DNA from: a bacterium
Lineage (GTDB): Bacteria; 4484-113; JAFGCY01
Length of the DNA stretch: 64,000 nt
Direction: 5' to 3'
Assembly (NCBI GenBank): GCA_041395205.1
Contig: JAWLAZ010000002.1
Span: 589,686 to 653,685, forward strand
A program made the position numbers and the translations under genes. The notes under the pieces were generated by a model. It was not told the DNA's origin. It saw only the letters and a list, made by a program, of their open reading frames with translations, and did no database searches. This document shows, in pieces, positions 19,474 through 61,222 of this stretch. How positions within the stretch are numbered: the stretch's first letter is position 1; every line of letters starts with the position of its first letter.

Positions 19474-19534
19474 CGGTGTGGGCTGGCTGTATTCGTTCCC
19501 ACGACTGCGGCTACTACTGGAAGGAGAAATCCCC

Positions 19535-21169
19535 GTGCGCATTTCATCTGTGAACATCGCCACGCTGCTGCTCGCCGCAATCCTGCTGGGCGCCTGCGCT
19601 GGCAATCCGGGCCTGCAGTCCGCAGCGCAGGACGGCAATGCTGAACTCGGCTATGCCAACTGGCAGCCGCAGCAGTCGATGGACCCCGTGCAGTCGCTGG
19701 ACGGCGCACTGCGCAGCAGTGCCGGCCTGCAGGCCGGTGGCTTCAGGCTCACGGCACTCGACAGCGGCAACTATCCGGACAGCCAGGTGCAGTCCGCCCT
19801 GCGCATGCAGCGCAGCGGAGACACCCTGCAGATCAGCAGCAATGTGCCGCTGGCGAGCGCCATGCTCTATCTGCAGAGCAGCACGGGCAGCGAGCACGTG
19901 CAGCAGGTCAGCTTCGGCGATCCCGCCGGCGTTGCCATCAGTGCTGAGCTGGACAACGGTGTGCAGGCCATCGGCCTGACCGGCCGCAACGGGGCCCTGC
20001 TCCCGGCCGGCAGCGTGCTTGCGAGCGTGGAGCTGGCTCCCGGAGCCGCTGCAGCCAGCCGCAGCGTGAAGGCCATTGACGCCGTCAACAACCGCGTGGG
20101 CCTGGTGGATCAGCAGAAGCTGATCGCCCAGGACAACGGCGAGGCGCTGGCCACCCTCACCTGGCGTGAGCGCTGCACCGGTGACTACGACATCAACGGT
20201 GTCGTGACCATCGCCGACATCACGCCGCTGGGCATCAACCTCAACAAGAGCTATGACAAGGAAGACCCTGACGCCTCCCCCAAGGTCGAGGTGGCGGACG
20301 GCGACTGGAACGGCCTGATCACGCTTGCGGACATCACGCCGATCGGCCAGAACATCGGCACGCAGATCGTCGGCTACGACGTCTACCGCACGACCCTCAG
20401 CGATGTCTCGGAGGATCCGACCCCGGATGTCAAGGACGCGCGCTGGTCGAAGATCGAGAATGCCAGCGATCCCGGCCTGCCGAGCGCCCCGCGCTCCGGT
20501 GCCCCGGTTACGGGTTCGCGCCTGACCTACACCTTCCTTGACAACACGATTCCCGACAGCGGCGGCAGCTATGCCTGGGCCGTGCTGCCGATCGCCGCGC
20601 AGGACCAGACACCGCGCGAGGGCCCGGTCAGCAACATCGCCAAGAGCGGCGTGAGCGCCAAGGGTGCGCCGGTGGACATCGTGATCCAGGATCCGGCCGG
20701 CAGCAGCCTGACGCTTGGCGACGAATTCTGGGTGGCGGTGCGCATCAGCGACGTGATCGGCCTGTTCAGCGCCAACATGCGCCTTGAGTACGACTCCAGC
20801 CTGCTGGAGGTCGTGGAGGTGGACACGGCGGACCAGATCCTGCCGGACTACGTGGACGGCGCCTTCAGCGGTGTGAACCTGCTGGTCGACCCGCTGTTCA
20901 TCGGGATTGACAACGTCGCTCCGGCTGACAGCCCCTACGTGCTGCTGGGCTTCAATGACACCCAGAAGCAGGGCACGCCGGTCGTGGACGGCAGTGGCAA
21001 CGTGGGCTACATCAAGTTCCGCGCCATCGCCGAGGGCAGCAATGCCGAGGCGGTGCGCTGGCCGCAGAGCTCGACCTTCATCCTGATGTGGGGTGAGGAA
21101 TTCGGCGTGCCGGCGGTGAACCCGATCCTCGGCCCGCCGCTGGATATCACGGTCGGCCCGGCGAGCTAG
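19535..21169 (+). CDS. secreted lipoprotein with two dockerin-like Ca-binding repeats and a C-terminal cohesin-like domain
   Basis: Probable GTG start at 19535 with a GGAAGGAG RBS; the upstream ATG at 19478 adds an implausible leader. Signal and lipobox LLGACAG. Dockerin-like loops are DYDINGVVTIADITPLG and DGDWNGLITLADITPIG. The C-terminus GAPVDIVIQDPAGSSLTLGDEFWVAVRISDV...LEYDSSLLEVVEV resembles cohesin modules. Confidence 0.65.
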   Translation: MRISSVNIATLLLAAILLGACAGNPGLQSAAQDGNAELGYANWQPQQSMDPVQSLDGALRSSAGLQAGGFRLTALDSGNYPDSQVQSALRMQRSGDTLQISSNVPLASAMLYLQSSTGSEHVQQVSFGDPAGVAISAELDNGVQAIGLTGRNGALLPAGSVLASVELAPGAAAASRSVKAIDAVNNRVGLVDQQKLIAQDNGEALATLTWRERCTGDYDINGVVTIADITPLGINLNKSYDKEDPDASPKVEVADGDWNGLITLADITPIGQNIGTQIVGYDVYRTTLSDVSEDPTPDVKDARWSKIENASDPGLPSAPRSGAPVTGSRLTYTFLDNTIPDSGGSYAWAVLPIAAQDQTPREGPVSNIAKSGVSAKGAPVDIVIQDPAGSSLTLGDEFWVAVRISDVIGLFSANMRLEYDSSLLEVVEVDTADQILPDYVDGAFSGVNLLVDPLFIGIDNVAPADSPYVLLGFNDTQKQGTPVVDGSGNVGYIKFRAIAEGSNAEAVRWPQSSTFILMWGEEFGVPAVNPILGPPLDITVGPAS

Positions 21170-22320
21170 GGCGGGAGGCCCGATGTAAGTCGAGGCGAGA
21201 GAGCTCCGGCTTCAGCCGGAGTGGAGGCCCGATGTAAGTCGGGCGACACGATTGCACGGAGGAGGCTACGGCCCTCCTCTTTTTGATGGCTGCGCTGAGC
21301 GCGCTGCGCGCGAGCAGCGTAGTGTGCATGAGCGGTTTTCTCGCAGAGGCGCAGGCAGAGTTCGGTCCAGCCTATGGAATGCAAGTATTCTTTCTCGCCG
21401 GCAGCGCCGGTATGCTGGTTGCTGCAATGATTTCGAGTCCCTGCGTACTGGTCTCTGAACAATCCCGCTGCATCCCTATGCCCACTGCCAATTTGACAAT
21501 GTACCGGCGCGGCCGCGGTGGGAAAAGCGCCCCGGTTTGCGTTAGCGGAACATGGAACCAGATTTTTCGGAGCCTGCCTCGTGTTTGATTGCACGGAGGA
21601 GGGCTACGGCCCTCCTCTATTTTGGGATGGCTGGCGCTGAGCCGCGCTGCGCGCGAGCAGCGTAGTGCTCGCATGAGCGGTTTTCCTGGCGCAGAGGCGC
21701 AGAGGCGCAGAGTTTTCTGGTCCAGCCTATTTGGAATGGCAGATCGATTCGCAGCATTCCCTTTCAAGCGCTGCGGGGCAGCGCCGGTACTGCTGGTTGC
21801 TGCAATGATTTCTGACTATAGTCCTCTGCGTACTCTGCGGCTCTCTGCGTTGAACAATCCCGCTGCATCCCTATGCTCCAGCATTGCCAATTTGGATAAT
21901 GTACCGGCGCGGCCCCGCCGCGATTGGGAGAAAGCGCCCCGAAGTTTGCGTTGCCAGCGGAACATGGAACCAAATTGATTTTCTCTGTGAGCTCTGTGCC
22001 TCTGTGTTTGATCAGCACATCTGCATCCCTGCCTTGTTGCCGTTCGAGCTTAGCGAGCCGCGCTGCGCGCGAGAAGGGCATTGCTCGCATGGAAAGCAAA
22101 TCAAACACAGAGTCTCAGAGGGCACAGAGTTTTCTGGTCCAGCCAAATTGGAATTGCAGATCGCTTCGCAGCATTCCCTTTCAAGCGCTGCGGGGCAGCG
22201 CCGGTACAGCTGCCTGTTGTCCATGGTTTCTGACTATAGTCCTCTGCGTACTCTGCGCCTCTGCGTTGAACAATCCCGCTGCATCCCTGCCTGGCAGCCG
22301 CCTGTTCCCTTCCCTATAAT
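21170..22320. repeat. REPIN-like composite repeat region (divergent copies of the CACAGAG / GGCAATGCGCACTTCGCGGC / CGCCGGTAC family)
   Basis: Internal ~330-bp direct duplications (21252-21580 vs 21589-21960, and 21700-21900 vs 22120-22320). Contains CTCTGCG heptad runs, the TTGAACAATCCCGCTGCATCCCT motif, and the ACCGGCGCGGCCCCGCCGCGATTGGGAG REP core. Confidence 0.7.
21258..21285 (+). terminator. rho-independent terminator (hairpin plus T5) embedded in a repeated module
   Basis: GGAGGAGG-ctacggc-CCTCCTC followed by TTTTT. The same module recurs at ~21589-21620. Confidence 0.55.
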
Positions 22321-26989: not shown

Positions 26990-27895
26990 GGCAATGATTC
27001 TAGCGGGAGGAAGGAGGTCTGGCGCAAGCCAGGCGCGGAGCTGCGACGCCAGTCGCGGAATCTGGAGCAGGGAGTTGAAAACAGAAAGCAGGCTCGCCTG
27101 CGCTCGGGTGGCAACGAGACATGAATGAAGCGGTTCTGAAGATTAACCACAGAGATACAGAGATCACAGAGGAAATCCGGGGGATTCGATTACCCGTTGG
27201 CAATGCGCACTTCGCTGCATTCTTTCCCAGGCGTCGCGGGGCGCTGCCGGTACATGATCCGAATTGGCAATGAACGAAAATACATGAATACAGGAATTCT
27301 TTAACGCTATGGCGCGAAGCCGCGAAGGAAGATATGAGATGAGTTTCCCCATTTGAAGTCTGTACCGGCGTCGCCCTGCGACGCTAGAGAGGGATTGTCA
27401 CGAAGCAATCTGCAATTCCAGTTTTGCGGATTCAGAAACCTCTGTGCGCTCTGTGGCTCTGTGTTTGACATTTCTTCCATACTCGCTGCGCTCGGCTGGC
27501 AACGTGGCGGGGATGCAGCGGGTTTATTCAAACACAGAGGCGCAGAGATCACAGAGAAATTCAATTGGGGTCGGTGTTCCGTTGGCAATGCTTACTTCGC
27601 GGCGTGCTCTCCCAGGTGTCGCGGGGCGCGGCCGGTACACTTCTTCACGGTTCACGGTTCACGGTTCACTCTTCACGGTTCACGCTTCACGGTTCACGCT
27701 TCACCCCTGACACCCATTGCCGAGCTGGCGCTCGACCTCCAGATTGTGCGACATCAAGTGTCGCACCTCCCCGCTCGACCTCCAGATTGTGCGACAGCAA
27801 GTGTCGCACCTCCCCGCCAGACCTCCGACACACCGCTCAACAAAAAAGGGAGCGCCGCGGCGCTCCCTCAAGGTGGTTCGATGATCTGAACGGGC
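26990..27895. repeat. REPIN-like composite element (type-1 units in both orientations, then a (TTCACGG)n microsatellite and type-2 REP hairpins)
   Basis: AACCACAGAGATACAGAGATCACAGAG...GTTGGCAATGCGCACTTCGC...GCGTCGCGGGGCGCTGCCGGTAC at 27131-27253. An inverted copy starts TGTACCGGCGTCGCCCTGCGACGC at 27361. Tandem ttcacgg at 27641-27700. A 47-bp unit duplicated at 27721-27830 contains CCGAGCTGGCGCTCGACCTCC. Confidence 0.75.
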
Positions 27896-31029: not shown

Positions 31030-32160
31030 CTACACAAAAATTACCATAATGCGAATATTTGTCAAGGAATAGCAATGTTAATGCAGATTGAAGGCAGGAG
31101 GCAAAAGGCAGAAGGCAGTGGTCAGGAGCGCCGGAGGATGCCGGGGGAAACGAGGCAGGGAAGATGCGGTTTTGAAGATAAACCACAGAGATACAGAGAG
31201 CGCAGAGGAATCCTGAAAGAAACTATTGCCAATACCAGCAGGACCGGCGTCGCCCTGCGACGCTTGAAAGTAAATGCTGCGAAGTAATCTGCAATTCGAA
31301 TTTCCAGATTCAGAAAACTCTGTGGGCTCTGAGTCTCTATGTTTGACACTTCTTCCTGGCTCGCTGCGCCCGGGTGGCAACGAGGCGGGGATGCAGCGGT
31401 TATGAAGACTAACCACAGAGATACAGAGAGCGCAGAGGAATCCAATTGCGATCGGTGATCCGTTGGCAATGCGTACTTCGCGGCAGCTTCTCCCAATCGC
31501 GGCCGGGCCGCGCCGGTACATTTTCTGTTTGGCAATGCAAGGTCATCATGTAAACGATGTCCTGGCACTAAATCATGTAAACGATGTCCTGGCACTCATC
31601 ACTAAGGCGCTAAGCCGCTAAGGAAGAGAAGTGAAGTTCATCCCCACATGCAGCTGTACCGGCGCGGCCCCGCCGCGCTTGAAAGTGAATGCTGCGAAGT
31701 ATTCTGCAATTCGAGTATTGCAGATTCAGAAGACTCTGTGGGCTCTGTGGCTCTGTGTTTGACAATTCTTCCAGGCTCGCATGCGCTCGATTGGCAACGA
31801 GGCAGGGATGCAGCGGTTCTGAAGATAAACCACAGAGATGCAGAGAGCGCAGAGAAATTCAGTTGGGATCGATTACCCGTTGGCAATGCGCACTTCGCGG
31901 CATGCTCTCCCAGGCGTAGTGACGGAGTGTAGCTCTTAGAGCCACAGGGCCTTGTTGGTCTCAGACCAACACTCCGCCGAGCTGGCGCTCGACCTCCAAT
32001 GGCACAGCTGCGCGGCATGCCCTCCCAGGCGTAGTGACGGAGTGTAGCTCTTAGAGCTACATGGCCTTGTTGGTCTCAGACCAACACTCCGCCGAGCTCG
32101 CGCTCGACCTCCAATGGCACAGCTTCGCGTCGCAGCACATCCACGGTATACTCAATGACG
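31030..32160. repeat. REPIN-like composite repeat region (type-1 units in alternating orientation plus type-2 REP hairpins)
   Basis: Type-1 units in both orientations across 31100-31930, with a 26-bp direct repeat at 31545-31596. Two ~120-bp units at 31920-32150 each end in CCGAGCTGGCGCTCGACCTCC. Region 31393-31918 is duplicated at 35599-36118. Confidence 0.8.
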
Positions 32161-35554: not shown

Positions 35555-36620
35555 GATGTGGCTCGCCTTTTGCTCTGATGGCAACGAGGAAGGATGAGGC
35601 GGTTATGAAGACTAACCACAGAGATACAGAGAGCGCAGAGGAATCCAATTGCGATCGGTGATCCGTTGGCAATGCGTACTTCGCGGCAGCTTCTCCCAAT
35701 CGCGGCCGGGCCGCGCCGGTACATTTTCTGTTTGGCAATGCAAGGTCATCATGTAAACGATGTCCTGGCACTAAATCATGTAAACGATGTCCTGGCACTC
35801 ATCACTAAGGCGCTAAGCCGCTAAGGAAGAGAAGTGAAGTTCATCCCCACATGCAGCTGTACCGGCGTCGCCCTGCGACGCTTGAAAGTGAATGCTGCGA
35901 AGTTGCTAGATTCCCACCTTGGCCAGGCCCAGAAAACTCTGTGGGCTCTGTGGCTCTGTGTTTGACAATTCTTCCAGGCTCGCATGCGCTCGATTGGCAA
36001 CGAGGCAGGGATGCAGCGGTTCTGAAGATAAACCACAGAGATGCAGAGAGCGCAGAGAAATTCAGTTGGGATCGATTACCCGTTGGCAATGCGTACTTCG
36101 CGGCATGCTCTCCCAGGCGTCGCGGGGCGCCGCCGGTACTCACTTCCGATGGGATATTTCTTCCTGCATTCCTTCGCGACTTCGCGCCTTGGCGTTGAAG
36201 AAATCCATACCGCATTGCCTCGTTGTCATTCGAGTCAGGCTGTGGCGTGACGAGGCGCGCAACCGCGCGAGCAGTAACATGCTCGCCTGCAGGGTTTTAT
36301 TGGCGCAGAGGCGCAGAGAATGAAGATGCGCAGAGAAATGCGATGTCACTGGGCTCATTGCTCAATCGTCATTGCTCATTGCTTCGCGGCATGCTCTCTC
36401 AGGCGTCGCGGGGCGCCGACGCTACACGTCTTCACGGTTCACGCTTCACTCTTCACGGTTCACCCTTCACTTCCGGTCCGGCTTGCGCTGGTCAACCACG
36501 CCGAGCTCGCGCTAGACAGGCATGTTGTGCGACCTGCGCCGCACCTCCCCGCCTGATCTCCGGCAGCAATGAACTAATCCATCTCCCCACGGGTACTAAT
36601 CCGCATTGAATTGACTTGCC
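35555..36620. repeat. REPIN-like composite repeat region, near-identical duplicate of 31393-31918 plus a (TTCACGG)-like microsatellite
   Basis: 35599-35872 matches 31393-31665 almost base for base, and 35925-36118 matches 31700-31918. A 26-bp direct repeat lies at 35748-35799. A ttcacgg-type tandem lies at 36421-36475. Confidence 0.8.
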
Positions 36621-40149: not shown

Positions 40150-40380
<231 letters not shown>

Positions 40381-41991: not shown

Positions 41992-42714
41992 ATGGCGCAT
42001 ACAGTCAAGGGCATCATCCTCGCCGGCGGCACGGGCAGCCGGCTCTTCCCGCTCACACGCGTGACCAACAAGCACCTGCTGCCGGTCGGGCGCAAGCCGA
42101 TGATCTTCCACCCGATCGAGAAGCTGATCGAGGCCGGCGTGCAGGACATCCTGATAGTGACCGGCACCGAGCACATGGGGGCGGTGGTCGGCCTCCTGGG
42201 CAGCGGCAAGGACTACGGCTGCCGCTTCACCTACAAGGTGCAGGATGAAGCGGGCGGGATCGCCCAGGCGCTCGGGCTGGCGCGCAACTTCGTCGGCAGC
42301 GACCGGATGTGCGTGATCCTCGGTGACAACATCTTCGAGGACCCGATCACGGATGCCGTGCGCGAGTTCAGCGAGGCAGCGGCAGGCAGTGCGCGGCTGA
42401 TGCTGAAGCCCGTGGATGACCCGCAGCGCTTCGGCGTTGCCACCGTCGAGGGTGACAGGATCACGAAGATCGTGGAGAAGCCGGCGGAACCGGAGAGCAA
42501 CCTGGCGGTGATCGGCGTGTACATGTATGACAACGGCGTGTTCGACGTGATCTCGACGCTGAAGCCCTCGGGGCGTGGCGAGCTGGAGATCAGCGATGTC
42601 AACCAGCACTACGTCGAACAGGGCATGGTGAGTTACAGCGTGCTCAGTGGCTGGTGGACGGACGCCGGCACCTTTGAAAGCCTCGCCCAGGCTAACCGGC
42701 TCGTGGGGGAATAG
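41992..42714 (+). CDS. sugar-phosphate nucleotidyltransferase (RmlA-like, short form)
   Basis: GIILAGGTGSRLFPLT...NKHLLPV...KPMIFHP N-terminal signature of glucose-1-phosphate thymidylyl/uridylyltransferases. 240 aa. Confidence 0.75.
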   Translation: MAHTVKGIILAGGTGSRLFPLTRVTNKHLLPVGRKPMIFHPIEKLIEAGVQDILIVTGTEHMGAVVGLLGSGKDYGCRFTYKVQDEAGGIAQALGLARNFVGSDRMCVILGDNIFEDPITDAVREFSEAAAGSARLMLKPVDDPQRFGVATVEGDRITKIVEKPAEPESNLAVIGVYMYDNGVFDVISTLKPSGRGELEISDVNQHYVEQGMVSYSVLSGWWTDAGTFESLAQANRLVGE

Positions 42715-43200
42715 GAGCTACCCGCTTAAGCGGGGAGGCAACGGGGGTCGGGTTTCGGGTTTCGGTGATCGGCAGATAGGCTCGCATGCGCTCGGGTTGG
42801 CAACGGGGACGACTCGGGCGGAGCGGAAGATTATCCATCAGAGCGATTCCTGGGCTGGCTGAGCACGCAATGGAATATGGCGGGCGTGAACGCCCTTCCA
42901 CCGCTAGCAGGGCGTTTACGCCCCGGAAATGAGAGTGGCATCTGCATTTCCAACACGACCCCCGGAATCAGCAGAAGGACCGGCGCCGCCCCGCGGCGAT
43001 TGGGAGATGGCGCAGCAAGCTGCTAGTGTCCATCCAATACGAGGAAGCACCGGCGCTGGGACAGTCTATTCCTGCGAACTGACCGTTCGCAGTCCGGCGG
43101 GCTGAATGCCCGCGCTCCGCGCCGAGCTGGCGCTCGACCTCCCCGCCTGGCTTGCGCCAGACCTCCGTGGGCGGGAAATAATCCGCTGCTGTTTTCCGAA
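42715..43200. repeat. REP hairpin cluster (type-1 and type-2 units)
   Basis: GACCGGCGCCGCCCCGCGGCGATTGGGAG at 42981, and CCGAGCTGGCGCTCGACCTCCCCGCCTGGCTTGCGCCAGACCTCC at 43120-43170. Confidence 0.6.
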
Positions 43201-45645: not shown

Positions 45646-46110
45646 ATCAGCATAGTAACAAGCATTTTCAACTATGTCAAGATCATTTTTGAAAATATTG
45701 AGGTTGATCTTTCGAATTAGCTTCAGGTAAGTAAGAAATGCGCAGTTTTTCTGAGATTGGACTTCAGATGTGGAAAGGAGGAAGAGGAAGATATGGGAGG
45801 GAGAGGAGAGAGAAGATCAACCACAGGGAGCACGGAGAACACGGAATCAGAAGCAGAATGAGAATCAGCAGAGGGGACGGCGGCAATTGGGAGGGGCTCT
45901 TGCGGAGTGCCACTTTCATTTCCCGGGCGTAAACGCCCTGCTACTGGTGGAAGGGTGTGGCAGTTGCATATTCCTTCAGGAGGTAACTTAATGGAGAAGG
46001 ACCGGCGCCGCCCTGCGGCGATTGGGAGGGGCTCTTGCAACCCCTTTGGAACCATCAAAACAAAGAAGGACCGGCGCCGCCTGGCGGCGATTGGTAGATG
46101 GCGTTACGAT

Positions 46111-46599
46111 TCAAGCTCCACCAGTCCGCCGAAGTTCATCCAGATGCGGATTGTAGAGAATGTACTGGCGAATGCGGTTCAGGGATACTTCGCTGTTCAC
46201 GATCTTCTCGTGGAATCCGTTCTGCCAGATTGCCAGTCCAGGATTTCCCGTTGTCAGGCGCGCTTCCTTCGTCACGGCCCCCTTGAATGAATTGATCACG
46301 GTTCCCAGCTTGGGTGGCCGTTCAGCATCAGCACCGTGGTGCTCTAGAAGCAGCAGGGCATGCAAGTGATTCGGCATGATTCTGTAAAGGTCATTGCTGA
46401 CATTGCTGTAAACCTGATTGTTGCGTTGCCAGATTTCATCGGCAATCCTGCCAAGCATGCTCAGTTCCACGGTGTTCTGCTGTCCGATCCTGCCGAAGAG
46501 ATTCCTGTTGCCAGCAGTGCAGATGGTGACGAAGTAGTAGCCGGGGGTGGAGTAATCATATCCGGCAAGACGATTGGAGTTTCTTTTGGGAACCAACAT
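46111..46599 (-). CDS. REP-associated tyrosine transposase (RAYT, IS200/IS605-like Y1 HUH), copy 1
   Basis: From MLVPKRNSNR. HUH motif IMPNHLHALL, catalytic-Tyr motif IRQYILYNP, and YYFVTICTAG near the N-terminus. The longer ORF to 46806 reads through the adjacent REP array and is rejected. Confidence 0.7.
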   Translation of the reverse strand: MLVPKRNSNRLAGYDYSTPGYYFVTICTAGNRNLFGRIGQQNTVELSMLGRIADEIWQRNNQVYSNVSNDLYRIMPNHLHALLLLEHHGADAERPPKLGTVINSFKGAVTKEARLTTGNPGLAIWQNGFHEKIVNSEVSLNRIRQYILYNPHLDELRRTGGA

Positions 46600-47010
46600 A
46601 TGGCAATAATAGGGCAATTTGTGGCACTCCGCAACTATGCCTCCCAATCGCCGCGGGGCGGCGCCGGTCCTTTGCTCGTCTCGATGGATCCTGCATCTCT
46701 TTGCTGCGCCATCTCCCAGTCGCCGCGGGGCGGCGCCGGTCCTGCCTCGTGTTGGATGGACTCTAACCGGTGGCTGCATTACCTCCCAATTGCCGCGGGG
46801 CGGCACCGGTCCTGCCTCGTGTTGGATGGACTCTAGCCGGTTGCTGCATTACCTCCCAATCGCCGCGGGGCGGCGCCGGTCCTGCCTCGTGTTGGATGGA
46901 CTCTAGCCGGTTGCTGCATTGCCTACCAATCGCCGCGGGGCGGCGCCGGTCCTTCCTCGTGTTGGATGGACTCTAACCGGTGGCTGCATTACCTCCCAAT
47001 TGCCGCGGGG
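46600..47010. repeat. tandem array of five ~76-bp REP units adjacent to RAYT copy 1
   Basis: Unit CCTCCCAATCGCCGCGGGGCGGCGCCGGTCCTGCCTCGTGTTGGATGGACTCTAGCCGGTTGCTGCATTA repeated 5 times with few substitutions. The core CGCCGC-GGG-GCGGCG is a hairpin. Inverted copies occur at 42981, 45995 and 46065. Confidence 0.8.
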
Positions 47011-47027
47011 CGGCACCGCTACCCTCC

Positions 47028-47110
47028 CTGACCACTGACTTCTGACCATTGACCACTGACTTCTGACCACGGACCACTGACCACTGACCACTGACCACTG
47101 ACCACTGATT
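47028..47110. repeat. (CTGACCA)n heptamer tandem array
   Basis: About 11 tandem heptamers of the CTGACCA/CTGACTT type, between the REP array and the divergently transcribed 47176 gene. Confidence 0.7.
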
Positions 47111-49415: not shown

Positions 49416-50756
49416 ATGAAGCGTGGACTGGCTGGGATCGGACTGAGCGTGCTGGCGCTGTTGCTGACTGCGCTGCATGCCGCATCCTGTGGCGGAGCAT
49501 CCGCCGCCGGTTCAGTGGATTCCGCTCCCGTTATCCAGGCCGCAGCGGCTCCGGCCTTCCCGCTGGATGACCCGCATTTCTCGCGCCAGGTGAAGGCGCT
49601 GGAAACCCTGGACGGCACGCAGACCTACTCCGACTGCGGAGCTCCGGGCTTCGCCGTGCATGACACGATCGCCACGGTGGGCGTGCTCGCCAGCAGCGAG
49701 GCCCAGCCCAGCGCCTGGGCGGTCTACCGCTTCCCGCTGAACAACCCCACCGACCTTGAATCGATCAAGGTCACCCTCCACCAGGGCAAGCTGGACGATT
49801 ACTACTACGTGATGCTGGCTGACTACACCAGCAAGCGCTGGCAGCTCGTCGGGCAGAAGCTGTCCACCTCCCAGGTGCTGCCGGCGGACTGGCAGGGCCT
49901 CGACATCACCAGCCCGGCCAAGTTCGTCTATATCGCTGTGATCGTGGTGGACGGGCGCGACATCAACATCGCCGGGCTGGAGTCCAGCATCACGCAGGGA
50001 AATGGAGGGGACTACCCGATCTACGACGACTTCGAGGACAACGACACGCTTGACACCTGCTATCCGATCGGCGTGGGCAGCTATGTTGCCAGCACGCATG
50101 ACGACTTCGTGCCCGAGATGCTGGAGATTGACGAGGCCCAGGACCACTGGGACTTCTACTGCATCGACCTGAATGCCGGTGAGCACTTCACCGCCACGCT
50201 GGAGTATGAGTACGTCAACCACTTCGACCAGCCCAACGGCACCTTCAACGATCTCGACATGCTGATGTACGCGCCGGGTGTGATGGACCTGCCATTGGAC
50301 AACTTCAATGAGCAGTGGAGCAGCATCCGCATCTACTTCACGAACATGGAGCTCGTGAGCTTCGTGGCCCCCGGCACTGGCACCTACCGCATCGGGATCC
50401 GAGGCGACCTGGGCGACCAGTTCTCGGCGGACAGCAATGCGGAGTACGTGCTGAAGACCTTCGTGAGTGCGGATACGCACAAGGTCAGCGGCTTCATCAC
50501 GCAGAATGAGCAGGAACCGGACAAGAAGTTCCTCGTGGTGCTGACGCCGGGCAACTTCAGCGGCGTGACCTCACTGGAGGCCGCACCCCACGGCGGCTAT
50601 GAAATCAACGGCGTGCCGGATGGGACCTACACCATGGAAGTGCGCGGCAGCGCGGCCTGGAACCAGCATGACTACACCTATCCGAATACCAAGCAGGTGG
50701 TGGTCAGCGGCGGCGACGTGAACATCAGCATGAGCATCGACCCCTTCCCGGGCTAG
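49416..50756 (+). CDS. lipoprotein with a PPC-like domain and C-terminal carboxypeptidase-regulatory-like domain
   Basis: Lipobox LHAASCGG. GTGTYRIGIRGDLGDQFSADSNAEYVLKTF resembles pre-peptidase C-terminal domains. The C-terminal KVSGFI...GVPDGTYTMEV resembles CarboxypepD_reg. Confidence 0.5.
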   Translation: MKRGLAGIGLSVLALLLTALHAASCGGASAAGSVDSAPVIQAAAAPAFPLDDPHFSRQVKALETLDGTQTYSDCGAPGFAVHDTIATVGVLASSEAQPSAWAVYRFPLNNPTDLESIKVTLHQGKLDDYYYVMLADYTSKRWQLVGQKLSTSQVLPADWQGLDITSPAKFVYIAVIVVDGRDINIAGLESSITQGNGGDYPIYDDFEDNDTLDTCYPIGVGSYVASTHDDFVPEMLEIDEAQDHWDFYCIDLNAGEHFTATLEYEYVNHFDQPNGTFNDLDMLMYAPGVMDLPLDNFNEQWSSIRIYFTNMELVSFVAPGTGTYRIGIRGDLGDQFSADSNAEYVLKTFVSADTHKVSGFITQNEQEPDKKFLVVLTPGNFSGVTSLEAAPHGGYEINGVPDGTYTMEVRGSAAWNQHDYTYPNTKQVVVSGGDVNISMSIDPFPG

Positions 50757-50850
50757 GAGGTCTGGCGCGAGCCAGGCGCGGAGGTCGAGCGCCAGCTCGG
50801 CGCGGAGGTCTGGCGCAAGCCAGGCGCGGGAGGTCCGGCGCAAGCCGGAA
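50757..50850. repeat. type-2 REP hairpins (inverted orientation) flanking RAYT copy 2
   Basis: GGAGGTCGAGCGCCAGCTCGG and GGAGGTCTGGCGCAAGCCAGGCG units, which are reverse complements of the units at 51601-51700. Confidence 0.7.
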
Positions 50851-50853
50851 TCC

Positions 50854-51474
50854 TCACTCCTTTCGCAATACGCGTCGGGGATCCACTGTATCCATCAGCG
50901 ATTCCAGACTGAAGCCATGCACACTGCTGTGTTGCCAGTCCGTCTGGCAAGCTGCCAGACCTGCCTTGACCGGATTGTCATGAATGTAGTCAAGCGTATG
51001 CTTCAGATGGTCAAGGCTGCGCATCGCCCGGTCAAAGTAACTGCCCTGCCAGAGTTTCCCCGATCTGCCGAGCAGGCGATTGATGCGCAGGGAGGAACGT
51101 GACTTGAGCAGTCGGACCGTATCACCCAGCCGGGCATGCTCCAGCTGCCTGATCAGCAGATGGACATGGTTTGGCATCACCACCCAGGCCAGTAGTGAGT
51201 AATGATCCTCCGCTGTCTCCATAAGGACATCCCTGAATGCAATGGCAGCACCTGCCGATGCCAGCAGACAGGTTCCCAGACAGCGATCCAGCTGATCATC
51301 CATAGTCTGGAACACACGCTCGCCGTCCAGCCTGCCCTGGAAGCTGTTGTGTGAGCGGCGCTCCCGAGGTGCGGCATCAGCCAGCACGAACGTCAGGAAC
51401 TGCAGGCAACCCTTATCGTCAAAATGCGGCAGATTGTCGTGCTTGTAGAATCCGCGATGAGTATCAGGCTTCAT
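50854..51474 (-). CDS. REP-associated tyrosine transposase (RAYT, IS200-like), copy 2
   Basis: HUH motif VVMPNHVHLLI, catalytic-Tyr motif LDYIHDNPVKAGL, and an N-terminal FLTFV strand motif. It is a distinct sequence from copy 1. Confidence 0.7.
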   Translation of the reverse strand: MKPDTHRGFYKHDNLPHFDDKGCLQFLTFVLADAAPRERRSHNSFQGRLDGERVFQTMDDQLDRCLGTCLLASAGAAIAFRDVLMETAEDHYSLLAWVVMPNHVHLLIRQLEHARLGDTVRLLKSRSSLRINRLLGRSGKLWQGSYFDRAMRSLDHLKHTLDYIHDNPVKAGLAACQTDWQHSSVHGFSLESLMDTVDPRRVLRKE

Positions 51475-51589
51475 GCCATGATTATATTTCTTATTTACTT
51501 TATGTCAAGGGATAGATGTTGAGGTTGTACATGAGTTCATCCGGAGCGGGTTCCGGATGGTGAGGGTGCAGGATGGACCGGCTTGCGCC

Positions 51590-51720
51590 GGGATACCATT
51601 GCCGAGCTGGCGCTCGACCTCCGACGCCTGGCTTGCGCCAGACCTCCGTTGTCCGGCTTGCGCCGGGATACCGCGCCGAGCTGGCGCTCGACCTCCATCG
51701 CCGAGCTGCCCCTCCCCCTC
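51590..51720. repeat. type-2 REP hairpins (forward orientation) on the other flank of RAYT copy 2
   Basis: CCGAGCTGGCGCTCGACCTCC occurs 3 times and CGCCTGGCTTGCGCCAGACCTCC once. Together with 50757-50850 these form inverted REP doublets around the RAYT gene. Confidence 0.7.
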
Positions 51721-51921
51721 CAATGATGTAACCCGTATCGCGCACGGGCGTCCCTAGATATGTGTTGGACGGGTGCATTGATGGGACCGCTCCAGAACTT
51801 CCGGTACATTAACGGAGCTGGCCCCGGCAAGCAGGCACCGCGGGCTGAAAGTTGTTATCATTAACAGTTGTTAAGAACCGGTAATACCCGAGATTCCCAC
51901 AGACCAGAACTGCGAGGACCG

Positions 51922-54900
51922 ATGGTTATGACAGGAAAGATTCTAGGCAGACTGACGACCCTGCTGGCGGGCGCGGCGCTTTTCGTGCTGGCCTCCTGCG
52001 GTGGCAGCGGCGGCGGGCTGGACAGCCTGGACACGTCCGCCAGCGAAAGCTGGCCCGTGCACGGCTACCAGGACGCGGCGCGCAGCGGCAGCTTCATGGT
52101 GGTGGCGGTGGATGACACCGAGCGCAGCATCGTGGAGCCGACCAGCCGCCTGAGCCTCGAGGTCGAGGCCGGGGATGGCGGGCAGTACGTGCGCGTGTTC
52201 GGCAGCGGGCTTGAGCCCAGCAACCACGCCTACCTGCACCTGGCCTATGATCCCGCCAGCGTGCGTCCCGTGACCGCCGGGGCCGGGCGTGAGATCGCCG
52301 GCGACAGCATGTTCGTGAGCGTGACGAGCGAACCCGGGCTGGTGGCGATGGGCATCGGCACGATCGGCGGCCGCGAGGTGATCGCGGGCGAGGTTGAGCT
52401 GGCCGAGGTCTTCTTCGCCGACGGTCCGGCCCTGATGCTCGGGCGCGGGACTTCCGCCGTGGCCCAGAGCCCGGTCAACACCCTGCGCTGGGACGGCACA
52501 GATCCGACCAAGCTGCTCTGGAACTACCGCAACACCGGCGACTACGACCAGAACCGCCAGGTCGGCATTTCCGACATCACCCCGATCGGCATCTACCTCG
52601 GCAAGAGCAACACCGAGAGCGACTGGTTCAAGGCAGAGCCGAGCGACGGTGACAACAACGGCGTGATCAACATCTCCGACATCACCCCGATCGGTGTCAA
52701 CTACAACAACCAGGTCTCCCAGTACCGGATTGACAGCGCGGCTTCCGAGAGCGGCAGCTTCAGCGGCACCGGCAGCAGCGTTGACTACGAACAGCACATC
52801 AAGCCCGCCGGCGGCGGCTTCTACAGCTTCGAATTCAGCCTCAGCCCGCTCCCCGCGGACGGGATGTGGTTCGCGGTCACCGCACTTGACAACGGCAACC
52901 CGGCCTCCGCCCATTCCAACGCCGTGCAGTACGGCGGCAGCGGCGGCGGCGGCTCCGCCCCGCAGAACCTCAGCGGCATCGTGAACGGTGCCAACTTCGA
53001 GCTCAGCTGGCAGGCCCCCGCCACGGGCACGCCTGACGGCTACAACGCCTATGTGAGCAGCACCGCCGGAATGAGCGGCGCGCTCAAGCTCAACAGCGCG
53101 CTGGTCAGCGGCACGAACTACATCGTGCCGAGCACGATCTCCACCGGCGGCACCTGGTACTTCGCCGTGACCGCGATGAGCGGCACGGACGAGAGCAGCT
53201 ACAGCAACATCTGGACCAACGCCGTGGGCGGTGACACCGACCCGCCGGCCTGGAGCGGCACCGACATCGGCATCAAGGCCGCGACCCCCGGTGACGCCAG
53301 CGTCAACGTGGAGTGGTACACCGCGACGGACACCAGCGTGCCCGTGACCTACAACGTCTACTACGCCGAGACCGGCACGGGCATCAACTGGAACACCCCG
53401 CAGCTGACCGGCCAGAGCGGCACGAGCGCGATGGTCAACGGCCTGACGAACGGCACGAGCTACGACTTCGGCGTGCGCGCCGTGGACAGCGCCAGCAACG
53501 TGACGACGAACGAGAACTTCCTGAGCGCCACACCGACGGCCGGCGTTGACAACACTCCTCCGGCCTGGTTCCAGGGCGAGGGCATCAAGACGGCCGAACC
53601 TGACAACCAGACCGTGGCCGTGACCTGGTACAGCGCGGTGGATGCCACCAATCCGCCGGTGAGCTACCTGCTGTATTACGTCGAGGACACCGAGGCCTTC
53701 GACTGGGACAACCCGCAGGAGGTCTTTGACAGCAGCATCACCAGCCATACGGTGATCGGCCTGACCAATGACCAGCGCTACAAGTTCGCGGTCAAGGCCC
53801 AGGACAGCGCCGTCCCGCCGAACCGCACGGCGAACGAGAACTTCCTCTACGCCACCCCGCAGATCTTCCCCGGCTCCGGCCAGATCGGTGCAGTGACCGC
53901 CAGCGACACAGCCAGCGTGCGGATGCCCGGCGAGGAGGTGCCGCGCATCTTCAGCGTGGACCGCGGCACGGCCCTGAACTACACGACCTGGACCGGCAGT
54001 GCCTGGGTCACGCAAGACCTGAACACGATCCTCTCCAACCCGGACCGCAAGTACCACCCGCAGGCCGTGGCCCGTGGCAATGACATCCATGTGGTGTTCG
54101 GCACGCCCAATGCGATCTATGAGCTGCATGGCGACAAGGACAGTGACCCCAGCACCTGGACACTGACGACGATTGCCAGCAGCGGAATCAACTCGATCTT
54201 CGGGATCGGCCTGGATTACAGTGCCACGGACGACTACTTCGCGGTGAACTACGCCACTGACAACGGCGGCGAGAAGCTCTACTACAGTGAGCGTGATGCC
54301 GGTGCCAGCTGGACCCTGCCCACGAAGATCGCGGATGGCACGCCGCAGATCTGGCAGTGCGACATCACGATCAACGAGAATGACGGTTCACAGTGGGCCG
54401 TGGGAGCCTTCGGCGAGGCCGACTCCAACTCGGATGACCTTAAGTTCTACTACTTCACCCGGCCGAACCGCGTCGACGGCTGGACGGGCGGCCCCTCCGG
54501 CGAGGGTGGCGACGTGATGGTGGTCGACATCGATCCCAACAGCAACGTGCCGATCGTCGTCAATGCAGAGGTGCGCGTGGTTGACACCGGCTTCGGCAAT
54601 GCCCCGATCAGCGATGCGGTGGTCTACCTCTGGAGCGGCTCGAGCTGGATCAAGAACGTGCTGGAGCAGGGCGACTTCATCGTGGACCTCGGCAACTTCA
54701 CGCAGGAGACGATCCTCACCGGGCAGGACCCGCAGGTCGTGTTCTCCCCGACCGGCAAGGCCGTCGCGCTCTGGAGCAACCTGGACATGGAGGTGGACCT
54801 GATTGAGCAGTCCGCCCAGCTCACCGGCTCCTGGCGCTTCAGCCAGCGTCCGGACACCAGCTGGTCAAACCCCTCGACGATGATTCCCAACATCTCGTCG

Positions 54901-55062
54901 TCAAACTCCGTGACGGCCGGTGAGAGCTACCAGCACTGCGTGACCTGCGACCTCGGCTTCATTGACCAGGATGACAACTACATCAACCTGTTCAACAAGT
55001 ACAGCCAACGCAACAACTACGTGGAGGGTACCCTCTACTACCGCCGCCAGAGCTGGAACTGA
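51922..55062 (+). CDS. large surface lipoprotein with dockerin-like repeats, FN3 repeats and a C-terminal beta-propeller-like region
   Basis: Start trimmed to MVMTGKIL with a GAGGAC RBS; lipobox LASCGGS. Dockerin-like loops are DYDQNRQVGISDITPIG and DGDNNGVINISDITPIG. There are several FN3-like segments (PQNLSGIV...FELSWQAP, DTDPPAWSG...VNVEWY, DNTPPAWFQ...VAVTWY). Confidence 0.65.
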   Translation: MVMTGKILGRLTTLLAGAALFVLASCGGSGGGLDSLDTSASESWPVHGYQDAARSGSFMVVAVDDTERSIVEPTSRLSLEVEAGDGGQYVRVFGSGLEPSNHAYLHLAYDPASVRPVTAGAGREIAGDSMFVSVTSEPGLVAMGIGTIGGREVIAGEVELAEVFFADGPALMLGRGTSAVAQSPVNTLRWDGTDPTKLLWNYRNTGDYDQNRQVGISDITPIGIYLGKSNTESDWFKAEPSDGDNNGVINISDITPIGVNYNNQVSQYRIDSAASESGSFSGTGSSVDYEQHIKPAGGGFYSFEFSLSPLPADGMWFAVTALDNGNPASAHSNAVQYGGSGGGGSAPQNLSGIVNGANFELSWQAPATGTPDGYNAYVSSTAGMSGALKLNSALVSGTNYIVPSTISTGGTWYFAVTAMSGTDESSYSNIWTNAVGGDTDPPAWSGTDIGIKAATPGDASVNVEWYTATDTSVPVTYNVYYAETGTGINWNTPQLTGQSGTSAMVNGLTNGTSYDFGVRAVDSASNVTTNENFLSATPTAGVDNTPPAWFQGEGIKTAEPDNQTVAVTWYSAVDATNPPVSYLLYYVEDTEAFDWDNPQEVFDSSITSHTVIGLTNDQRYKFAVKAQDSAVPPNRTANENFLYATPQIFPGSGQIGAVTASDTASVRMPGEEVPRIFSVDRGTALNYTTWTGSAWVTQDLNTILSNPDRKYHPQAVARGNDIHVVFGTPNAIYELHGDKDSDPSTWTLTTIASSGINSIFGIGLDYSATDDYFAVNYATDNGGEKLYYSERDAGASWTLPTKIADGTPQIWQCDITINENDGSQWAVGAFGEADSNSDDLKFYYFTRPNRVDGWTGGPSGEGGDVMVVDIDPNSNVPIVVNAEVRVVDTGFGNAPISDAVVYLWSGSSWIKNVLEQGDFIVDLGNFTQETILTGQDPQVVFSPTGKAVALWSNLDMEVDLIEQSAQLTGSWRFSQRPDTSWSNPSTMIPNISSSNSVTAGESYQHCVTCDLGFIDQDDNYINLFNKYSQRNNYVEGTLYYRRQSWN

Positions 55063-55127: not shown

Positions 55128-55230
55128 AGTAGTGAGTGGTCTGTGGTCAGTGGTCAGTACCCATATTGTCCGACCAGTGATTTCTGACTACTGACTACTG
55201 ACTACTGACTACTGATTACTGACCACTGAC
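55128..55230. repeat. inverted heptamer tandem arrays (GTGGTCA)n ... (CTGACTA/CTGACCA)n at a convergent gene junction
   Basis: AGTGGTCTGTGGTCAGTGGTCAG at 55128-55160 and (CTGACTA)n(CTGACCA)n at 55175-55230 are mutually complementary, separated by ~15 nt. Confidence 0.7.
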
Positions 55231-55232
55231 CA

Positions 55233-55916
55233 CTATTCCCACAGGTCAGCCTGGTATTCGCCCTCGGGGCTTCTGTAGCCGAAGACCTCACGGAATTCGC
55301 GCTCCAGCGCATCGCCGACCTCATCGAGGGTGGGCGTGCGGCCGCTGATGCTCTCGATGCTGCCGACCTGCTTGCCGGTGATCCCGCAGGGAATGATCAG
55401 GTCGTAGAAGCTCAGGTCCGTTGTCACGTTCAGAGCCAGACCGTGGTAGCTCACCCCGCCGCGCACCGCCACGCCGAGTGCGGCGAGCTTGACCTCGCCG
55501 ACCCAGACGCCGGTCAGGCCGGGGCTGCGCCCGCTCTCGATCCCCCATTCATGCAGGGTGCGGATCAGCGTCTCCTCCAGGCCGTGCATCAGCTCGCGCA
55601 CGCCCATCCCCCGCGCGCGCAGGTTGACAACGGGATAGCCCACGAGCTGGCCGGGGCCGTGGAAGGTGATGTCCCCGCCGCGCTCGATCTCGCGCCAGTC
55701 CACGCCCAGTTCGCTCAGGCCCTCCCTGTCAACGATCAGGTTGGCACTGTCGCCGCTGCGCCCAAGCGTGATCACGGGATCGTGCTCGACGAGGATCAGG
55801 GTGTCGGGGATTTCATCCATGCGCCGGGCGGTGTGCAGTTCGAGCTGGCGCTCATAGCAGCGCGGCCAGTCCAGGCGCCCGAGGCGCAGCACATCCAGGG
55901 GCGGATGGACAGCCAT
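55233..55916 (-). CDS. lipB: lipoyl(octanoyl) transferase
   Basis: LILVEHDPVITLGRSGD, RGGDITFHGPGQLVGYP and KLAALGVAVR motifs of LipB. Confidence 0.85.
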   Translation of the reverse strand: MAVHPPLDVLRLGRLDWPRCYERQLELHTARRMDEIPDTLILVEHDPVITLGRSGDSANLIVDREGLSELGVDWREIERGGDITFHGPGQLVGYPVVNLRARGMGVRELMHGLEETLIRTLHEWGIESGRSPGLTGVWVGEVKLAALGVAVRGGVSYHGLALNVTTDLSFYDLIIPCGITGKQVGSIESISGRTPTLDEVGDALEREFREVFGYRSPEGEYQADLWE

Positions 55917-56226
55917 ATGGATATTCTATTGCAGTATGCCCGAGATGATATGGGCATTCACCACGAAGGACTCAAAGTCCGCAATGGGATACATGATCAC
56001 AAAGTGCTAGCTTTCAGATTGTGGCAGCCGGATGAGACCAGGGCGAATCAGCAGCGCATCCCTTGGTGCAGTTTCACAGCACCTCCGACAGGAGGCCAGG
56101 CAGTTTGCCTGGCAATCGCCAAGCTTACAGCTTGGCCTCCAATAGCGCAGCTACGCAGCGCAACCCATGGTGCAACTTCACAGCACCTTCGGTTTGATAG
56201 GCCCGACCGGGCCATGCGGTGGCCTA

Positions 56227-60903: not shown

Positions 60904-61222
60904 ATGCAGATTGTACCCGAGTTACCAATAATGCAATGAGCAGGCATGAATGTCGAAGATCAGGCGGCAGCATGCCGCCGCTGAGTTCGATGGGAGCGGA
61001 GCGCGAGCATTCAGCTCGCAGGACCGGCGGCAGTCAGCCGCCGTGTCGCAAGGCAGTCTATAGATTGGCAATCAAGGATTATCCATGCGGCACGTGGTGG
61101 CATTGAGGATAGTCATGGATGATGTCTCAGGTCAGAATCACGGGCTGAATGCTCGCGCTCCCCTCCCCCGTTGCCAGGCTTACACCTGGCCTCCTCGTTG
61201 CCCGGATTGCTCCGGGCCTCCG

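Follow-up and report, generated by a model that had tools for sequence, protein, structure and literature searches.

A REP-associated tyrosine transposase gene between head-to-tail arrays of GGAG-footed hairpin repeats in a bacterium of candidate phylum UBP7/4484-113

The DNA analysed here (64,000 nt of contig JAWLAZ010000002.1, hereafter the window) originates from an uncultured wastewater bacterium of the candidate phylum UBP7/4484-113. At 50854-51474 it carries a gene for a REP-associated tyrosine transposase (RAYT; REP, repetitive extragenic palindrome), referred to as RAYT2, which is situated between two arrays of a short hairpin repeat designated type 2. The locus comprises the following features:

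50854-51474, minus strand: RAYT2, a 206-aa REP-associated tyrosine transposase with the HUH histidines H103 and H105, the catalytic Y163, and a WQxxYFDRxxR region as candidate foot reader
51481-51508, minus strand: sigma-70 promoter TTGACA-16-TATAAT, matching the consensus at 12 of 12 positions
50756-50852, plus strand: left (3'-side) REP array of four head-to-tail units, tandem period 24, 3.8 copies
51578-51721, minus strand: right (5'-side) REP array of six head-to-tail units, detected as inverted pairs I1-I8 and as a tandem repeat

The open reading frame (ORF) of RAYT2 is intact and contains the motifs HVHLLI (H103 and H105) and YIHDNP (Y163), as described in the initial annotation; its assignment to the RAYTs is borne out as well. 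RAYT2 reaches 94.8 bits against the NCBIfam equivalog model REP_Tyr_transpos (NF047646, cut-off 80), but only 27.6 bits against transpos_IS200 (NF033573, cut-off 55), and the same distribution above and below the two cut-offs was observed for six relatives of RAYT2. The Pfam family Y1_Tnp is matched with 3.6e-10. By sequence, the closest PDB entry is 4ER8 (E 2.3e-8), the Escherichia coli TnpAREP bound to a REP hairpin, and the same entry is the top Foldseek hit of the AlphaFold model (pLDDT 91.5; E 3e-10, TM(target) 0.68), where it outranks all IS200/IS605 transposases. Compared to the E. coli enzyme, the model has an additional N-terminal beta-hairpin and an insertion of two helices (approximately 45 aa) between beta1 and alphaA. 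The tyrosine motif Y---NP defines class 2, which includes TnpAREP, and Y---Q is typical of IS200/IS605 (Quentin 2018, PMC6006769); RAYT2 carries the class-2 signature (YIHDNP) together with the WQ motif (LWQ). Across 71 relatives of RAYT2, the HUH, Y, WQ, and D/R residues show little or no variation. This includes W142, Q143, D148, R149, and R152, invariant or nearly so throughout the RAYT2 clade, which align with the foot-reading residues W94, Q95, E100, H101, and R104 of E. coli (PMC6006769).

An AT-rich stretch separates the right array from the ATG, and the -10 hexamer ends 6 nt upstream of this start codon, for which reason a leaderless RAYT2 mRNA is predicted. A -10-like hexamer occurs 6-7 nt before the ATG in all seven genes of the RAYT2 clade (found by scan, except for one gene of locus L001 and the gene of L195, which were read by eye, the latter with a corrected start). 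The 90% protein cluster of RAYT2 holds one member on one contig, and no second copy was found within the window. The G+C content at third codon positions (GC3) amounts to 0.65, compared to 0.81-0.91 in the adjacent genes. Considering both RAYT genes of the window and those of loci L001, L110, and L097, GC3 values of 0.47-0.70 face 0.68-0.91 for the neighbours; the low GC3 of every clade gene examined may be a sign that these genes moved horizontally or are under weak codon selection.

A type-2 unit is 24-25 nt long and consists of a GGAG foot, a short stem with the core CTGGC, CGAGC, or CCGGC, and a GCAA, GCGA, or GCCA loop. The units of the left array (50756-50779, 50780-50803, 50804-50828, and 50829-50852) are composed of GGAGGT, a 5-bp stem (CTGGC, CGAGC, CTGGC, and CCGGC in order), and a GCNA loop. 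The first base of this array is the G of the stop codon (TAG) of gene 49416-50756, and the array ends one base short of the RAYT2 stop codon. The right array (51578-51597, 51601-51622, 51626-51647, 51652-51672, 51675-51696, and 51700-51721) contains twice a 74-nt module of three units, i.e., CCGGC with a GGTATC foot, CGAGC, and CTGGC; apart from the replacement of GGAGGT by GGTATC in two units, the only exception is the degenerate outermost unit. On its outer side lies the 5' end of the adjacent gene and no 3' end. More than 10 hairpin subtypes exist in these genomes, of which the same three are found on both flanks.

Inside either flank, the units form direct tandem repeats with a period of 24-25 nt, and the two flanks are reverse-complementary to each other, with inverted pairs of 23-67 nt at 74-100% complementarity and with arms of up to 67 nt (84% complementary) and of 23 nt (100%). 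The initial annotation was thus right in assigning to the gene a repeat family of its own, in reverse-complement orientation on the left relative to the right. The left array begins on the G of TAG at 50756, and the right array starts at 51578 and not at 51590. Its description as inverted doublets in a textbook arrangement of REPINs (REP doublets forming hairpins) around a RAYT has to be replaced by head-to-tail arrays of four and six units. When the window is taken together with 36 related loci, neighbouring units share a strand in 84 cases and differ in strand in 27. The flanks do not form REPINs in the sense of two inverted REPs with a short spacer folding into one long hairpin, nor does orientation alternate inside the arrays as in bacterial interspersed mosaic elements (BIMEs). 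The units conform to canonical REPs in being short hairpin palindromes (24 nt with a 5-7-bp stem, compared to 20-40 nt), but the foot is GGAG instead of GT[AG]G in all seven clade loci and in metagenome relatives. An Rfam search of 50000-52500 returned no known RNA family. Reading the arrays as CRISPR was rejected due to the lack of spacers and the period of 24-25 nt, and a coding function was rejected since they lie between two stop codons.

The pattern GGAGGTCNRGCGCNAGCYNG, searched with up to two mismatches, matches 15 times in the window (13 exact), compared to 0.18 matches expected from shuffles. Seven of the 13 exact copies, two GGTATC variants, and one degenerate unit account for the ten units adjoining RAYT2. 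Six further type-2 copies, all located in long repeat-filled intergenic regions, are distributed over the 64 kb:

27013-27032, plus strand: dispersed type-2 unit (CTGGC), followed by a GGAGC-TGCGAC unit
27721-27740, minus strand: dispersed type-2 unit (CGAGC)
31978-31997, minus strand: dispersed type-2 unit in the first copy of a composite tandem repeat (115 nt)
32093-32112, minus strand: dispersed type-2 unit in the second copy of this composite tandem repeat
43123-43166, minus strand: head-to-tail pair of type-2 units (CGAGC and CTGGC, starting at 43123 and 43147)

Except for the copy at 27013, all of these had been noticed before. They share their intergenic regions with type-1 elements, the repeats of the second RAYT of the window (see below). 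Next to the unit at 27721-27740, two half-units (approximately 27772-27783 and 27815-27826) are interleaved with TGCGACA hairpin units.

For a test of structure, units were chosen in the window and the 36 related loci by foot and loop alone, without requiring pairing. A perfect 5-bp stem was present in 83 of these 98 anchor-defined units. Among the 29 distinct unit sequences, 82% of cells are paired, compared to 25-38% with the partner slid, and 33 cells show double changes, compared to 11.7 in shuffles, of which none out of 500 reached 33. The type-2 hairpin is under structural constraint, with compensatory changes in the stem. Among the matches listed from the entire genome collection, type 2 is multi-copy only in the three UBP7 genomes CP060262.1, HKST-UBA01, and HKST-UBA03 (UBA01 and UBA03 in the following), with singletons elsewhere; in these three the pattern occurs in at least 8, at least 9, and at least 19 blocks of 8 kb (at least 36 in total). 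The related loci contain mixed head-to-tail arrays of many hairpin types with CTGGC > CGAGC > CCGGC as a recurring order, and the three-unit module of the right flank of RAYT2 is repeated in the sister genomes at 93-94% identity (L082 7858-7925, L052 5369-5436, and L004 1914-1988).

Six other members of the RAYT2 clade (40-52% identity) were read together with their flanks, and each has matching units on both sides:

P0002 and P0009: locus L001, on a single contig of a 4484-113 metagenome-assembled genome (MAG), with 1.2 kb between them
P0010: locus L110, CP060262.1
RAYT2-clade gene: locus L097, UBA01
P0011: locus L193
P0007: locus L195

On the coding strand, all seven clade genes share the layout [GGAG-hairpin]n, AT-rich promoter, gene, [hairpin-CTCC]n. 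The hairpins themselves differ by member (TCAGTCC/CCAGACC-CATG; TGCGACA-CTTG; CTACCCGC-TTTA; TGTAGCTC-TNAG; GCCGATTG), and the occurrence of a different type at each paralogue examined argues for specificity. The invariant putative foot-reading patch would fit a constant foot combined with a variable hairpin. More distant relatives from soil and sediment metagenomes (31-41% identity) are flanked by units of GGAG(C) plus a palindrome in both orientations, counted by the foot anchor since perfect palindromes match in both senses. In the metagenome scan no relative exceeded 41% identity, and hence no orthologue with type-2 flanks was obtained.

At the DNA level, the conserved genes of the window share approximately 80% identity with CP060262.1, which is the complete 4.1-Mb genome of Planctomycetales bacterium HK-STAS-UBP7_A-1, and with the UBP7 MAGs UBA01 and UBA03. 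MEZ5338664.1 is identical to RAYT2, and two paralogues with about 47% identity, MEZ5337300.1 and MEZ5339013.1, have accession numbers close to it. Due to these neighbouring numbers both probably stem from the same assembly, which suggests at least three RAYT2-clade paralogues in this genome. No synteny around RAYT2 was observed in the sister-genome loci examined, where the repeat arrays alone match. One orthologous gene has, between its stop codon and its intrinsic terminator, a slot (window 21167-21290, L066 approximately 900-1000, L041 5815-5900) that is occupied by a type-2 unit in two of the sister genomes and by CCCGA-TGTAAG units in the window; different REP types by species in an orthologous slot indicate REP turnover. 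In UBA01, a composite-repeat block of approximately 650 bp is inserted after the intrinsic terminator of this slot.

We interpret the locus as a REPtron, i.e., a single-copy RAYT, acting as a TnpAREP-type HUH/Y1 single-strand endonuclease-ligase, together with its cognate short extragenic palindromes, and assign a probability of roughly 0.8 to this interpretation. Several observations weigh against it. No orthologue of RAYT2 above 52% identity occurs in the protein collection, intact type-2 units are nevertheless present in CP060262.1, UBA01, and UBA03, and the sole clade gene of CP060262.1 among the best 120 matches (P0010) is associated with another repeat type. Hence either RAYT and REP are not paired one-to-one from species to species, or these units depend on another paralogue. 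Single units fold with only slightly more favourable energies than shuffles (z -1.2 to -3.5), and folding energy by itself is weak evidence in this GC-rich DNA. Furthermore, inverted arrays bracket many RAYT-free intergenic regions of the related loci, and among 125 units standing first in an array, 37 are located at most 30 nt from where a long ORF (120 codons or more) ends, and 13 overlap the TAG of such an ORF. Due to this generic location at gene ends, the left array could belong to the 3' end of the neighbouring gene. Such findings would be expected if RAYT2 merely sat among generic gene-end elements, be it RNA 3'-end hairpins or insertion hot-spots, to which it has no cognate relation; this view agrees with the type-2 units of sister genomes lacking the orthologue and with the left array starting at the TAG that ends gene 49416-50756. 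We regard it as quite improbable, since the right array faces a 5' end, the same three of more than 10 hairpin subtypes occur on both flanks, and all seven clade genes have member-specific matched units on both sides in one fixed polarity.

Presence of identical units and of the three-unit module in species without the orthologue is also compatible with RAYT2 being a REPtron whose dispersed type-2 units owe their maintenance to a different paralogue or to selection in the host, with RAYT2 itself being recent, horizontally acquired, or dispensable. Its reduced GC3, a deficit shared by all clade genes examined, points in the same direction, and candidate foot-reading residues that do not vary among paralogues would permit cross-recognition. 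As each paralogue examined has a different type of flanking hairpin, and RAYT2 is intact with a perfect promoter, we consider this scenario unlikely. Highly improbable is an autonomous insertion sequence of the IS200/IS605 type with the hairpin arrays as its ends: the HUH/Y1 fold is indeed common to the TnpA proteins of IS608 and ISDra2, and hairpins are situated at both ends, but the score against the IS200 model is below cut-off, the tyrosine motif is Y---NP and not Y---Q, neither tnpB nor a second copy of the gene is present in the window (the ORF list contains no tnpB-sized neighbour), the 90% cluster is confined to one member on one contig, and the flanking units far outnumber the gene.

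For the REPtron, a mode of action can be proposed by analogy to E. coli TnpAREP and its complex 4ER8 (Ton-Hoang 2012 and Messing 2012, as cited in PMC6006769). RAYT2 would bind the hairpin as it folds in single-stranded DNA (probably that of the lagging-strand template) and read the 5' GGAG foot by the patch of W142, Q143, D148, R149, and R152. It may then cleave beside the unit by means of Y163 and the HUH-bound metal and re-ligate the ends, and repeated cleavage and re-ligation would copy or move units and thereby build up head-to-tail arrays. Arrays directly following stop codons probably double as 3'-end RNA hairpins. The junction TA/GGAGG (the slash marks the array start) was seen at 50754-50756 of the window as well as at L069 686, L015 1560, L013 747, L008 1311, and others; arrays beginning on stop codons could reflect target-site choice or selection. 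Such a junction on TAG reads as a perfect Shine-Dalgarno-like AGGAGG.

REPtrons, i.e., RAYTs flanked by their own REPs, and the occurrence of several RAYT/REP pairs per genome are established (Nunvar 2010, PMC2817692; Quentin 2018, PMC6006769; Di Nocera 2013, PMC3733652; Bertels 2017, PMC5581495). The RAYT2 locus shares with the REPtron of E. coli TnpAREP (YafM) the HUH and Y---NP motifs, the WQ...R patch for foot reading, and flanking REPs of its own, which here are also found dispersed in extragenic DNA of the 64 kb, but the proteins are only about 20% identical, the foot is GGAG and not GTAG, D148 and R149 replace E100 and H101, and head-to-tail 24-nt arrays take the place of inverted REP pairs (BIME/REPIN). 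Similarly, Pseudomonas fluorescens SBW25 with its REPIN-RAYTs and Stenotrophomonas maltophilia with its REP classes contain several divergent RAYTs, each flanked by its own REPs, which it is presumed to serve (Bertels & Rainey 2011; Nunvar 2010, 2013). These REPs have GT[AG]G feet and mostly form inverted doublets, and the RAYTs fall into the Proteobacterial groups 2 and 3, whereas here a UBP7 host, a GGAG foot, and mixed hairpin types in direct arrays are found. By motif only, RAYT2 resembles the TnpAY1 subclasses 2.1/2.6 (Quentin 2018; groups 1/5 of Bertels) more than the classical 2.2/2.5, as NHVH, WQ, YIHxNP, and the SS tail fit better. TnpAY1 2.1/2.6 as well as TIRYTs and their TIRtrons (Di Nocera 2013) occur in Acidobacteria, Planctomycetes, and Bacteroidetes with non-GTAG flanking repeats or atypical hairpins. 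Subclass 2.1 has a C-terminal helix-turn-helix and is reported without REPs, whereas RAYT2 lacks this domain and has clear REPs, and the TIR consensus GGGGWSAS differs from the GGAG foot of type-2 units. With the TnpA of IS200/IS605 (IS608, ISDra2), RAYT2 has in common the HUH/Y1 fold and the logic of hairpin and guide tetranucleotide on single-stranded DNA; it differs from them in the features already discussed. The literature search for GGAG-footed REPs yielded nothing specific. Overall, the locus represents an ordinary REPtron from a clade that has received little study, with an arrangement usual for the gene family and a repeat layout that is unusual; the differences from known systems are the GGAG foot, the direct mosaic arrays, the N-terminal insertion, and the host phylum.

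A second RAYT gene is located in the window:

46111-46602, minus strand: copy-1 RAYT with the motifs HLHALL and YILYNP, flanks at 45995-46103 and 46638-47024

It scores 52 bits on REP_Tyr_transpos and thus stays under the cut-off, and is flanked by its own repeat CCGGCGCCGCCCCGCGGCGATTGGGAGG, present upstream as a 70-nt tandem array (5.4 copies). A hidden Markov model of the RAYT2 clade matches copy 1 and RAYT2 in the window and no others. BLASTP aligns both proteins with 26% identity over 78 residues (E 0.024), and profile comparison (E 2.5e-9) covers only the core from HUH to Tyr. Judged from these alignments, the two RAYTs are remote homologues rather than close paralogues and their systems are distinct, in agreement with the initial annotation, which in addition had called the coexistence of two RAYT/REP systems unusual. 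This is contradicted by the several pairs per genome on record, with each tnpAREP gene having its own REP family (Quentin 2018, PMC6006769; Di Nocera 2013, PMC3733652), and a count of two systems is too low. At least five further GGAG-footed hairpin families occur without a RAYT of their own in the window, namely TGCGACA-CTTG, CTACCCGC-TTAA, TGTAGCTC-TTAG, CCCGA-TGTAAG, and CCAGGCA/CCAAGCT (27747-27814, 42714-42738, 31896-32129, 21174-21245, 56091-56140, and 61174-61221). Three of them (27747-27814, 42714-42738, and 31896-32129) correspond to the repeats that flank RAYT paralogues of related genomes (L001, L110, and L097). In total, GGAGG followed by a hairpin occurs 25 times in the window, compared to 2.3 times expected.

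It is tempting to speculate that UBP7/4484-113 uses a modular RAYT/REP code, in which a shared foot patch and the GGAG foot are combined with a hairpin barcode for each paralogue, mosaic head-to-tail arrays favour the stop-codon slot (TA/GGAGG), and type 2 is kept without its RAYT in sister species; as a whole, this proposal is possible but rather doubtful. If it were true, the persistence of type 2 would imply cross-mobilisation between paralogues or a function at host level, such as translation termination or protection of RNA 3' ends. With the RAYT2 locus, the RAYT/REP partnership, of which almost all studies concern Proteobacteria, is extended to a candidate phylum that is uncultured. As a natural panel, the seven or more related enzymes with a common GGAG foot and different hairpins could serve to map the discrimination between own and other repeats. 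With respect to annotation, the label transposase is misleading for RAYT2, and the hairpin arrays at gene ends are to be taken neither for CRISPR arrays nor for terminators or coding sequence.

Further repeats were observed in the window. Tandem heptamers (TTCACGG, AGTGGGC, CTGACCA, and CTGACTA) are located beside intergenic REP clusters at 27643-27704, 36419-36470, 40156-40241, 40328-40378, 47028-47108, and 55184-55234. Composite repeats with a spacing of approximately 417 bp and 66-99% identity, built on inverted type-1 hairpins and short CACAGAG/CTCTGTG runs, occupy 21.7-22.3, 27.0-27.7, 31.1-32.1, and 35.5-36.5 kb. Dockerin-like repeats (GDYDxNxxVxISDITPIG) are encoded at 52538-52701 and 20181-20353 within the genes of large secreted proteins (51868-55062 and 19478-21169, respectively).

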